Assembly: GCF_054482595.1 (NCBI RefSeq) | Contig: NZ_CM137008.1 | Strand: one strand, 5' to 3' | DNA length: 64,000 bases | Part shown: one piece after another, positions 1,249 through 53,934 of the stretch | Layout of the letters: each line of letters opens with the position of its first letter | Numbering within the stretch: the first letter of the stretch is position 1 | Position numbers and translations under genes: made by a program | The notes under the pieces: model-generated | Seen by the model: only the letters and a program-made list of their open reading frames with translations | The model's database searches: none | What the model was told of the DNA's origin: nothing

Positions 1249-1599
1249 TCACTCCTGGTCTATTTCTATCCGCCGAATCTGTAAACCGTCGTCTGCCACA
1301 ATCTGTAGCATGTCACCATGACACTGTGGACAGCGGCGGACGCGCTGGGTCAGTAGCGTCACATACTGTTGGCATGTTTCACACCAGCATTCGGCCTCTT
1401 GTTCTTCGAGGTGCAGTTTACAACCTTCCGCCACGCTGCCGCGGCAAACCAGATCAAAACAAAAGGCAAGAGAGCTGGTTTCGACACAAGAAAATGCGCC
1501 AATTTTGAGCCAGACCCCAGTTACGCGTTTTGCGCCGTGTTTTGCGGCCTGCTGTTCGATCAATTCCAGTGCCCGTTGGCAGAGGGTTATTTCGTGCAT
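1249..1599 (-). CDS. hypA: HypA Ni insertion protein for hydrogenase 3 (116 aa)
   Basis: ORF-track 1249..1611; the recognised HypA N-terminus MHEITLCQRALELIE starts at the internal ATG 1597..1599. C-terminal CxxC...CxxC zinc motif present. Confidence 0.9.
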   Translation of the reverse strand: MHEITLCQRALELIEQQAAKHGAKRVTGVWLKIGAFSCVETSSLAFCFDLVCRGSVAEGCKLHLEEQEAECWCETCQQYVTLLTQRVRRCPQCHGDMLQIVADDGLQIRRIEIDQE

Positions 1600-1629
1600 A
1601 TCGCCTCCCATTAACTATGGCCAGCTACA

Positions 1630-1645
1630 AGCAATAATTGTGCCA
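1630..1645 (-). promoter_or_regulatory. sigma54 (-24/-12) promoter for the hyp operon
   Basis: Minus strand reads TGGCAC-aatta-TTGCT, a canonical GG-N10-GC sigma54 element about 30 nt upstream of the hypA start; hyc/hyp are known FhlA/sigma54 dependent. Confidence 0.7.
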
Positions 1646-1670
1646 GTATTGATTATCCCTGCGGTGAATA

Positions 1671-1713
1671 ATGTCGATGATGTCGAAATGACACGTCGAC
1701 ACGGCGACGAAAT
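1671..1713. promoter_or_regulatory. Putative FhlA upstream activating sequence between divergent hyp and hyc promoters
   Basis: Repeated TGTCG / CGACA half-sites (atgtcgatgatgtcgaaatgacacgtcgacacggcgacgaaat) centred between the two sigma54 promoters. Confidence 0.6.
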
Positions 1714-1758
1714 TCATCTTTAGCTTAAAAATCGTTTTAATAACAATGAATTAAAAGT

Positions 1759-1774
1759 TGGCACAGAAAATGCT
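1759..1774 (+). promoter_or_regulatory. sigma54 (-24/-12) promoter for the hyc operon
   Basis: TGGCAC-agaaa-ATGCT with GG-N10-GC spacing, about 37 nt upstream of the hycA ATG at 1811. Confidence 0.7.
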
Positions 1775-1810
1775 TAAAGCTGGCATCTCTGTTAAACGGG
1801 TAACCTGACA

Positions 1811-2272
1811 ATGACTATTTGGGAAATAAGCGAGAAAGCCGATTACATCGCACAGCGGCATCGTCGCCTACAGGACCAGTGGCACATCTACTGCAATTCG
1901 CTGGTTCAGGGGATCACGTTATCGAAAGCGCGCCTGCATCACGCCATGAGCTGCGCGCCGGACAAAGAACTCTGTTTCGTCCTTTTTGAACATTTTCGTA
2001 TTTACGTCACCCTGGCGGATGGCTTTAACAGCCACACCATCGAGTATTACGTCGAAACAAAAGAGGGCGAAGACAAACAGCGGATTGCGCAGGCGCAACT
2101 GAGCATTGACGGCATGATTGATGGCAAGGTCAACATCCGCGATCGCGAACAGGTTCTGGAACACTATCTCGAAAAAATCGCTGGCGTTTACGACAGCTTA
2201 TACACCGCTATTGAAAACAATGTGCCGGTGAATTTAAGCCAACTGGTAAAGGGACAAAGCCCGGCAGCATGA
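1811..2272 (+). CDS. hycA: HycA, negative regulator of the formate regulon (153 aa)
   Basis: ORF-track protein MTIWEISEKADYIAQRHRRLQDQWHIY... recognised as HycA; first gene of the hyc operon. Confidence 0.93.
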   Translation: MTIWEISEKADYIAQRHRRLQDQWHIYCNSLVQGITLSKARLHHAMSCAPDKELCFVLFEHFRIYVTLADGFNSHTIEYYVETKEGEDKQRIAQAQLSIDGMIDGKVNIRDREQVLEHYLEKIAGVYDSLYTAIENNVPVNLSQLVKGQSPAA

Positions 2273-2321
2273 GCTGAGGCTTTGCCCGTTTTGCAGGCGT
2301 TACGCCTGTTTGGGGATGGGC

Positions 2322-2367
2322 GTGTCGATGAGTGTCGAAAATGACATTTCATCGGCATGTTTTCGTC
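2322..2367. promoter_or_regulatory. Second putative FhlA-type site in the hycA-hycB intergenic region
   Basis: gtgtcgatgagtgtcgaaaatgacatttcatcggcatgttttcgtcaaaaatgaca: reiterated TGTCGAAAATGACA-like motifs resembling the upstream site at 1671..1713. Confidence 0.5.
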
Positions 2368-2396
2368 AAAAATGACAATCACCTGAGGAATGCCTG

Positions 2397-3008
2397 GTGA
2401 ATCGTTTTGTAATTGCTGACTCCACGCTCTGTATCGGCTGCCACACCTGTGAGGCCGCCTGTTCAGAGACGCATCGCCAGCACGGCCTGCAATCAATGCC
2501 GCGCCTGAGAGTGATGCTAAATGAAAAAGAATCTGCGCCGCAGCTCTGTCACCACTGTGAAGATGCACCCTGCGCGGTGGTCTGCCCGGTTAACGCCATC
2601 ACCCGCGTTGATGGGGCCGTGCAGTTGAATGAAAGCCTGTGCGTAAGCTGCAAACTGTGCGGCATCGCCTGCCCGTTTGGCGCAATCGAATTTTCCGGCA
2701 GCCGTCCGCTGGATATTCCGGCAAACGCCAATACCCCGAAAGCGCCACCGGCACCGCCTGCTCCGGCGCGTGTCAGCACATTGCTTGACTGGGTGCCAGG
2801 TATTCGCGCGATCGCCGTCAAATGTGACCTTTGTAGCTTTGATGAACAAGGTCCGGCCTGCGTGCGGATGTGCCCGACTAAAGCCCTGCATCTGGTGGAT
2901 AACACCGATATCGCCCGCGTCAGCAAACGTAAGCGTGAGCTGACCTTTAACACGGACTTTGGCGATCTCACCTTGTTTCAGCAGGCTCAAAGTGGAGAGG
3001 CTAAATGA
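2397..3008 (+). CDS. hycB: HycB, FHL complex Fe-S (4Fe-4S ferredoxin-type) subunit (203 aa)
   Basis: MNRFVIADSTLCIGCHTCEAAC with multiple CxxCxxCxxxCP motifs; GTG start at 2397 preceded by GAGGA. Confidence 0.93.
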   Translation: MNRFVIADSTLCIGCHTCEAACSETHRQHGLQSMPRLRVMLNEKESAPQLCHHCEDAPCAVVCPVNAITRVDGAVQLNESLCVSCKLCGIACPFGAIEFSGSRPLDIPANANTPKAPPAPPAPARVSTLLDWVPGIRAIAVKCDLCSFDEQGPACVRMCPTKALHLVDNTDIARVSKRKRELTFNTDFGDLTLFQQAQSGEAK

Positions 3009-13992: not shown

Positions 13993-14005
13993 ACATTGTC
14001 ATCAC

Positions 14006-14033
14006 ATGTCATCGTCACTAGTGTCGATGACAT
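14006..14033. promoter_or_regulatory. Inverted repeat ATGTCATCG-N10-CGATGACAT upstream of hydN, possible FhlA-type site
   Basis: Inverted repeat seen directly; resembles the TGTCG/CGACA motifs at the hyc-hyp sites; hydN-hypF is reported to be formate regulon. Confidence 0.4.
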
Positions 14034-14140
14034 CTTTTTTCCTGCATTACAGAAATTAATTTCCTTAAATAACAGTGAATTAAAAACTGGCATGATTTGT
14101 GAATGTATCGGCGCATTAACTGTCATTGCTGGAGAATTTG

Positions 14141-19817: not shown

Positions 19818-19833
19818 TGCAGATTGCGTGCCA
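19818..19833 (-). promoter_or_regulatory. sigma54 promoter of norVW
   Basis: Minus strand reads TGGCAC-gcaat-CTGCA (GG-N10-GC), about 45 nt upstream of the norV start. Confidence 0.75.
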
Positions 19834-47614: not shown

Positions 47615-47969
47615 GCAATAGAAAGATTCCTGTTATTTGTTTATGTCGATACATTACCCAATGGAAATAGTCACTTTTTTCTACCCTAACATACTGAGAA
47701 TCTGAGGCAACCCCTGAGGGCAAATGTGGCATGAATATTGATGTGAGCAAATCGCCGGAATTTCCCGTGATATAAGGGCTGAGAGCAAATCGAGAAAAGT
47801 TGATATTTTTTGTCAAAGATAGCGAAAAAACGCCTGAATATTGTGGTTTCAGGCGAATAATGCAACAGAGTATCAGTGTAGATCACCACAAAATATTTGC
47901 GTGATAAAAAGCTATTTGGCGGGAATTATTTCCCTGTCGCGGGTAGTGATATTTTTGAAAATAACACCC

Positions 47970-53267: not shown

Positions 53268-53934
53268 GCTAATGCTCCTTAATAAAAGCGTAATGGGATG
53301 TTAATGGAGATGAAAGCAGTGGATCTCATTGCCATCTGCATTTTCGCATAGCGTATATCGCTGGCTATGACTAATCAATTAGTGAAAAATTTTTATTTAG
53401 TCAGTTTTTGTAGATAAAATATTCCGTAACGGCTCGTTTTTTGTACATTGTGGATTTTTACATGCCGATATGATTTATTTTCAATTAAATCAATTAGATA
53501 TGACCTTGCCTTTAATTTCACTAATGAAAGTTTGGGGGTGAGGTAACGCTATAAGCGTAGAGAATTCGGTGTATGTCGTGACCGGGTCATTTACAGCATT
53601 TTTTATGCCAGAAAATGTACATTAACAGCAGAAAGCACCAGTGATGGATGTTTTCTTTTATTCTGTTATATTGCATTTTTATTCACTTTGGTTTTGTCAG
53701 GCTTGCGGAATTAGCGAGCAGAGAGCGCCGTTCTGTTCACCAATAATCTAAATTACTCATCAAAATGGCTAATATATAATCTTGAAATTATTCTGAGAGT
53801 TTCAGAAAATAACAGCTGAAATAATCTCGCGCAGGACTGTAAATAGATTAAATTTTGTGGAAATATAATAAGTGATCGCTTACACTACGCGACGAAATAC
53901 TTTTTTGTTTTGGCGTTAAAAGGTTTTCTTTATT

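Follow-up and report, generated by a model that had tools for sequence, protein, structure and literature searches.

Divergent sigma-54 promoters and FhlA-type repeat clusters in the hyp-hyc control region of the Escherichia coli formate regulon

Introduction

In fermenting enterobacteria, the region between hypA and hycA turns on the production of hydrogen from formate. Two genes of the divergent operons bear on this control themselves: the hyp operon ends with fhlA, and the hycA product antagonises FhlA. In the hycA-hypA region of E. coli K-12, the divergent sigma-54 promoters PhycA and PhypA and an FhlA UAS are reported to have been described by Lutz et al. 1990, Schlensog et al. 1994 and Hopper et al. 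1994. The latter two studies are said to have shown FhlA bound to the DNA and activation that depends on formate, and Hopper et al. 1994 reportedly located IHF binding to the DNA that separates the central repeat cluster from the hyc promoter. The central cluster was reportedly assigned to the hyc promoter, and the cluster here called UAS2 to the hyp promoter, by Schlensog, Lutz and Böck 1994 and Lutz et al. 1990. The upstream activating sequence of E. coli fdhF is said to have been described by Birkmann and Böck 1989.

Occupancy of the region by sigma-54 has been reported in two species. The E. coli ChIP-seq study lists, as previously known sites, OS27 at hycA (TTGGCACAAAAAATGCT, 26 nt from the gene) and OS28 at hypA (CTGGCACAATTATTGCT, 20 nt from the gene), and it describes hypA as activated by FhlA with formate under anaerobiosis (PMC4591121). 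In Salmonella, ChIP-chip located sigma-54 at hycA (TGGCATGGAAAATGCTTA) and hypA (TGGCATAAATATTGCTTT), with FhlA named as the activator, and microarrays revealed sigma-54-dependent expression of 26-fold for hyc and 5.6-fold for hyp (PMC3844500). Genomic SELEX yielded a peak of the RpoN holoenzyme in the hycA/hypA spacer in vitro (PMC8743547), and FhlA binds upstream of fdhF and hyc (PMC11291172).

The region is the classical, already known hyp-hyc sigma-54 control region of the E. coli formate regulon, and it has been experimentally characterised for three decades. Here, we describe how it reads in a 64,000-nt window (the whole stretch of DNA that was analysed) and how its elements compare among enterobacterial species.

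Results

The locus and the comparison set

The genes that frame the control region in the window are as follows.

1249-1599, minus strand: hypA
1811-2272, plus strand: hycA
2397-3008, plus strand: hycB

Positions 1600-1810 are thus exactly the hypA-hycA intergenic region, 211 bp long. Many E. coli chromosomes match the stretch 1250-2400 with 100% identity, and 5,425 of 5,426 complete E. coli genomes contain it. For comparison, one genome per species was taken, which gave 80 loci from about 20 enterobacterial genera, or 81 with the window. The arrangement hypA / hycA / hycB was present in all 80 scanned loci. In an alignment of the spacer from 20 species, the columns without variation were those of the ribosome-binding site of hypA, of both -24/-12 elements and of the core TG.C...GACA of the central UAS.

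The RefSeq annotation of the K-12 region contains no regulatory features. A scan of 1500-2500 for sigma-70 promoters and terminators revealed nothing beyond chance; its single terminator-like match is the GTCGAC-containing repeat of the UAS itself. An Rfam search of 1200-2700 returned two sub-threshold chance matches only and no known RNA element.

Two divergent sigma-54 promoters

A first-pass annotation, made from the sequence alone, had proposed divergent sigma-54 promoters in the spacer, with TGGCAC-N5-TTGCT directed toward hypA and TGGCAC-N5-ATGCT toward hycA. Both elements can be read directly as described, and each predicts a transcription start from promoter geometry.

1645..1630, minus strand: sigma-54 promoter of hypABCDE-fhlA, TGGCAC-AATTA-TTGCT, by direct reading; TGGCAC at 1645..1640, AATTA, TTGCT at 1634..1630, with GG at 1644-1643 and GC at 1632-1631
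1619, minus strand: predicted start of hyp transcription; the -12 C lies 12 nt upstream and the hypA ATG (1599) 20 nt downstream
1759-1774, plus strand: sigma-54 promoter of hycABCDEFGHI, TGGCAC-AGAAA-ATGCT, by direct reading; TGGCAC at 1759-1764, AGAAA, ATGCT at 1770-1774, with GG at 1760-1761 and GC at 1772-1773
1785, plus strand: predicted start of hyc transcription, with the hycA ATG (1811) 26 nt downstream

The hyp promoter has no mismatch to TGGCACN5TTGCW, and the hyc promoter has one, an A for T before TGC. At both, the GG and GC dinucleotides lie one helical turn apart, the element is oriented toward its gene, and the distance to that gene is short and conserved, as expected of sigma-54 promoters. 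The predicted starts at 1619 and 1785 agree with the published distances of 20 nt for hypA and 26 nt for hycA (PMC4591121).

With at most one mismatch allowed, TGGCACN5TTGCW occurs four times in the 64-kb window against 3.66 expected, so that the count alone is not above chance. Two of the four matches fall in the 211-bp spacer, one on each strand and each facing its gene, where about 0.006 per strand would be expected. The whole window was also scanned, over 128,000 strand positions, with a sigma-54 matrix derived from the 186 promoters of Barrios et al. (PMC7658346). The highest-ranked matches, together with a known promoter of lower rank, were the following.

Rank 1, 1630-1645, minus strand, 19.0 bits: hyp promoter, the top match of the whole 64 kb
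Rank 2, 19818-19833, minus strand, 16.4 bits: norV promoter (known)
Rank 3, 1759-1774, plus strand, 15.5 bits: hyc promoter
Lower rank, 14088-14103, plus strand, 10.9 bits: hydN promoter (known)

Among the 81 loci, a minus-strand TGGCA(C/T)-N5-TTGC(T/A) was found in every case, ending 29-35 nt from the hypA start (43 nt in one locus), and a plus-strand TGGCA(C/T)-N5-NTGC(T/A) was likewise present in all 81, its last base 34-37 nt from the hycA start. TGGCA and TGC were invariant at both promoters throughout the set, the N5 spacer varied freely, and the distance of each promoter to its start codon was almost fixed. The columns of the hyp promoter were also invariant in the 20-species alignment. 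The significance of the two elements therefore derives from their placement, matrix rank and conservation and not from raw counts. Taken together with the published ChIP results in E. coli and Salmonella, the matrix ranks and the 81/81 conservation support the divergent promoters of the first-pass annotation.

The two promoters differ at one position. In none of the 81 loci was the base before the -12 TGC of the hyc promoter (1770 in the window) the consensus T; A, G or C stood there instead. The hyp promoter, by contrast, always had TTGC. This non-consensus base fits the weaker ChIP signal at hyc, 91 compared with 201 at hyp (PMC4591121).

Several other features of the promoters and their surroundings were observed. 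The segments 1620-1645 and 1759-1784 form a 26-nt imperfect inverted repeat with 77% complementarity, which runs past the -12 elements to a common AGCTGGC just before the predicted starts; this extension is not conserved beyond Escherichia. The hycA 5' leader (1786-1810, ATCTC..TTAAACGGGTAACCTGAC) has no obvious Shine-Dalgarno sequence and is well conserved in Escherichia, Salmonella, Citrobacter, Kluyvera and Pseudocitrobacter. A sigma-54-like motif inside hycA (1880-1895, plus strand, TGGCACATCTACTGCA, 15.1 bits) ranked fourth in the matrix scan, and we considered and dropped its reading as an internal promoter, as it is probably fortuitous. It is spelled by the codons Trp-His-Ile-Tyr-Cys, conserved among species as Trp-His/Arg-x-Tyr-Cys, and the Cys codon alternates between TGC and TGT, so that the -12 GC is lost in some species and a by-product of coding is likely. 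The motif is not in the E. coli sigma-54 ChIP-seq table (PMC4591121).

Farther away in the window, the norV promoter (TGGCACGCAATCTGCA, 19818-19833, minus strand) is the published sigma-54 site OS25. Two additional sigma-54-like motifs were seen. One, TGGCATAAAAAATGCT (53595-53610, minus strand, 13.9 bits), lies in an AT-rich stretch of about 600 bp that has no ORF of at least 80 aa. The other, TGGCATGAATATTGAT (47727-47742, plus strand, 14.5 bits), lies in a spacer upstream of a 400-aa minus-strand ORF, the size of proV, and has GA in place of GC at -12. Both motifs are absent from the text of the E. coli ChIP-seq paper (PMC4591121).

The central FhlA cluster and the AT-rich tract

Between the promoters, the first-pass annotation had noted a block of TGTCG/CGACA repeats at 1671..1713. 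The repeats are read directly at 1672-1710, within a cluster that we call UAS1.

1672-1713, strand-less: FhlA enhancer cluster UAS1, with the core TGTCGATGA-TGTCG-AAATGACA at 1672-1693, followed by CGTCGACACGGCGACGAAAT
1672-1676 and 1681-1685: TGTCG
1689-1693: TGACA
1695-1701: GTCGACA
1705-1710: CGACGA
1714-1758, plus strand: AT-rich segment with an IHF-like core, GC 0.20 compared with 0.53 for the window
1741-1753, plus strand: IHF-like core TAACAATGAATTA, separated by 5 nt from the hyc -24 element

UAS1 lies at -114..-72 from the predicted hyc start and at -53..-94 from the predicted hyp start, in line with the location expected of an FhlA enhancer, roughly 70-150 bp upstream of a sigma-54 promoter. 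Two descriptions of the FhlA consensus were used, the TGWC-N6-GWCA matrix (PMC7658346) and the CGAAATG half-site of CATTTCGTACGAAATG (PMC4987338, citing Leonhartsberger 2000). The matrix match at 1672-1685 (16.05 bits) is the second best in the window, a rank that is partly circular because the matrix was built from characterised, partly E. coli sites that probably include these. The CGAAATG half-site occurs at 1684-1690, and TGTCGAAATGACA has a 5-nt centre, not a 6-nt one as in the FhlA consensus.

As with the promoters, pentamer counts carry little weight. The three exact TGTCG/CGACA copies in 45 nt make the densest such cluster in the window, yet this density was reached in 65 of 200 shuffles and is not significant alone; TGTCGN4TGACA and TGTCGN3TGACA, with one mismatch, showed no excess over shuffles in the whole window. 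When the half-site was broadened to TGWCR/YGWCA, the three 45-nt windows with the highest density in the 64 kb were located upstream of hydN (13996), in UAS1 (1662) and in the hycA-hycB spacer (2333); FhlA is expected to bind in precisely these three regions. In all 81 loci, the hypA-hycA spacer held four or more half-sites within 45 nt, and the core columns TG.C...GACA were invariant across 20 species. The proposed control by FhlA and formate is thus supported, FhlA being the named activator (PMC3844500, PMC4591121) and UAS1 holding the second-best, if partly circular, matrix match.

The AT-rich tract is found only on the hyc side of UAS1, and there is none between UAS1 and the hyp promoter. 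In E. coli, the core TAACAATGAATTA departs from the IHF consensus WATCAANNNNTTR by one mismatch. Of the 81 loci, 27 had a perfect consensus at this place, 10 had one with a single mismatch and 44 had none that could be recognised, and the A/T columns of the segment were partly conserved in the 20-species alignment. The earlier reading had omitted this tract, which is an addition to it.

A second FhlA-type cluster in the hycA-hycB spacer

A second cluster was found outside 1600-1810, downstream of hycA.

2323-2377, strand-less: FhlA-type cluster UAS2, TGTCGATGAGTGTCGAAAATGACA ... TTTTCGTCAAAAATGACA, in the hycA-hycB spacer
2333-2346: TGTCGAAAATGACA, FhlA matrix match of 17.4 bits
2361-2376: 16-nt element TTTCGTCAAAAATGAC
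2364-2377: further FhlA matrix match

The match at 2333-2346 is the best in the window, its rank being partly circular in the same way as that of UAS1. In a local alignment, the UAS1 core (1672-1693) and the UAS2 segment 2323-2346 (TGTCGATGAGTGTCGAAAATGACA) agree at 22 of 24 aligned positions, a score reached by none of 2000 shuffles. The element TTTCGTCAAAAATGAC was exact in 77 of the 81 loci, and CGTCAWAARTGAC was present in all 81, usually 20 nt before the hycB start. The RpoN matrix scan revealed no sigma-54 motif adjoining UAS2. Judged from its sequence, UAS2 is a near-duplicate of UAS1 and a putative enhancer that the earlier reading missed.

The spacer that holds UAS2 varies among genera. 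It measures 124-146 nt in Escherichia, Salmonella, Citrobacter and Intestinirhabdus, the only genera in which its left part is present, and 67-97 nt in the others. This left part is where two repeats able to form hairpins are located, around and just after the hycA stop codon (2243-2308), the one composed of GGGACAAAGCC/GGCTTTGCCC followed by GTTTTG and the other of CAGGCG-TTA-CGCCTG followed by TTTGGGG.

Spacing between the promoters

The GG-to-GG distance between the two promoters fell into discrete classes: 116-118 bp in 58 of the 81 loci, 104-105 bp in 19, 94 bp in three and 114 bp in one. Among the loci of the 117-bp class, the UAS anchor occupied one of two positions, with distances to the two promoters of 46/71 bp or 56/61 bp, which differ by roughly one turn of the helix.

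Discussion

A model of the region

The present analysis establishes the motifs, how they rank within the window, and how they are conserved and spaced; occupancy by sigma-54 and dependence on FhlA and sigma-54 are established by published work. With high confidence, we take the motifs to represent the classical hyp-hyc mechanism, in which FhlA and sigma-54 act at both promoters, UAS1 serves hyc, UAS2 serves hyp and IHF bends the DNA. According to this model, sigma-54 RNA polymerase would form closed complexes on both divergent -24/-12 promoters (1645..1630 toward hypA and 1759-1774 toward hycA), neither of which would open without an enhancer-binding ATPase. The activator would be FhlA, switched on by formate and bound to the TGTCG/TGACA cluster at 1672-1713. 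A bend in 1714-1758, assisted by IHF, may then bring FhlA into contact with the polymerase bound at hyc, and ATP hydrolysis would open this promoter. UAS2 (2323-2377), about 700 bp from the hyp promoter, would most likely be the hyp enhancer and act through a long DNA loop. The pairing of enhancers with promoters, the IHF bend and the exact transcription starts are parts of the model that are inferred or taken from the older literature. Because fhlA ends the hyp operon and hycA encodes the FhlA antagonist, the region would give rise to positive and negative feedback driven by formate and would also be subject to it.

The asymmetric layout, with the IHF-like tract on the hyc side and a UAS2 that has no promoter of its own, agrees with the classical assignment of UAS1 to hyc and UAS2 to hyp. 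The main competitor is a reading in which UAS1 is a shared bidirectional enhancer for hyc and hyp, and UAS2 is auxiliary or has another role. UAS1 does lie between the promoters, 72-114 bp away from the predicted start of hyc and 53-94 bp away from that of hyp, and at the latter distance it could in principle act on hyp as well. The discrete spacing classes and the anchor shift of about 10 bp could likewise reflect a face-of-helix constraint toward both promoters. However, the 10-12-bp steps may equally be the gain or loss of 9-10-bp repeat units in the cluster, and the classes comprise only a handful of independent events in related species. Moreover, the IHF-like AT-rich tract is confined to the hyc side, a conserved promoterless UAS2 is hard to explain if UAS1 suffices, and Schlensog et al. 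1994 reportedly assigned the hycA-hycB site to hyp. We regard a shared enhancer as rather unlikely. That the motifs are chance matches in an AT-rich spacer, with no regulatory role, has a probability close to nil: the whole-window consensus counts do equal expectation and the pentamer cluster is readily matched by shuffles (65/200), but the idea is refuted by the 81/81 conservation, with fixed GG/GC and variable spacers, and by the in vivo occupancy of sigma-54 in two species, and the placement, orientation and top matrix ranks also oppose it.

A different doubt concerns the element TTTCGTCAAAAATGAC (2361-2376), which might be conserved mainly for a reason other than FhlA, such as an RNA signal that affects hycB translation or transcript processing. 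Its exact conservation in 77 of 81 loci exceeds that of most of UAS1, and in 68 of 81 loci it adjoins the ribosome-binding site at a near-fixed distance of 20 nt upstream of the hycB start. Nevertheless, it matches the FhlA matrix on both strands, resembles the motif CGTCAAAACTGACG upstream of fdhF, and is paired with upstream TGTCGA..TGTCG units in 80 of 81 loci, and no Rfam family matches there; we consider a mainly non-FhlA role very improbable. A variant with tighter geometry, in which UAS1 is phase-locked to both promoters and could act on both, and the 16-nt element before hycB has a second, RNA-level role beside FhlA binding, seems to us decidedly unlikely. The classical mechanism, with UAS1 directed to hyc and UAS2 to hyp, is the reading that we retain.

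The hyp-hyc region is a textbook case of enhancer-dependent sigma-54 transcription, and the present reading adds no new biology. What it adds is limited to UAS2, which the first-pass annotation did not mention, the one-sided position of the IHF-like tract and the statistics of the comparison. The 81/81 conservation, the duplicated enhancer core and the spacing classes are small refinements, which could guide promoter engineering for hydrogen production.

Comparison with related regions

The hycA-hypA intergenic region of E. coli K-12 is the same locus, with strain-level SNPs only. A window position p corresponds to MG1655 coordinate 2852246 minus p. Between the two sequences, window positions 1249-2400 contain nine substitutions, six of them in the hypA-hycA spacer, and none of the six falls in a GG, a GC or the UAS core. 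The N5 spacer of the hyc promoter is AAAAA in K-12 and AGAAA in the window, and position 1619, the predicted hyp start, is T in K-12 and G in the window. The promoter motifs and the gene distances of 26 and 20 nt are the same as those in the published table (PMC4591121).

Within the window, the hydN-hypF region (13995-14103), also dependent on FhlA and sigma-54, has the same three-part layout as the hyc side.

13995-14035: TGTCA/TGACA repeat cluster, followed by an AT-rich IHF-like tract and then the promoter
14071-14092: module AATAACAGTGAATTAAAAACTGGCA
14088-14103, plus strand: hydN promoter TGGCAT-N5-GTGAA, TGGCATGATTTGTGAA, 10.9 bits

The hydN promoter is the sigma-54 site OS26 (PMC4591121). 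The module AATAACAGTGAATTAAAAACTGGCA is nearly identical to the IHF/-24 module of hyc, AATAACAATGAATTAAAAGTTGGCA. Unlike the hyp-hyc region, the hydN region is unidirectional, has a weaker -12 element (GTGAA) and uses another repeat spacing (TGTCGATGACA).

The region upstream of K-12 fdhF shares with the hyp-hyc region the units CGTCAAAA(A/C)TGAC(G/A) and TTTCGTCA, and it carries CGTCAAAACTGACG, which resembles the UAS2 element TTTCGTCAAAAATGAC. A TGGCAT-N5-ATGCA promoter lies downstream of the shared units. In contrast to hyp-hyc, fdhF has a single promoter without a divergent partner, at another chromosomal locus outside the window. The norR-norVW region resembles hyp-hyc in that its divergent spacer contains a sigma-54 promoter and, upstream of it, enhancer sites (PMC2831303). 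However, only one of its two divergent promoters depends on sigma-54, and its activator is NorR, which uses GT-N7-AC sites, and not FhlA.
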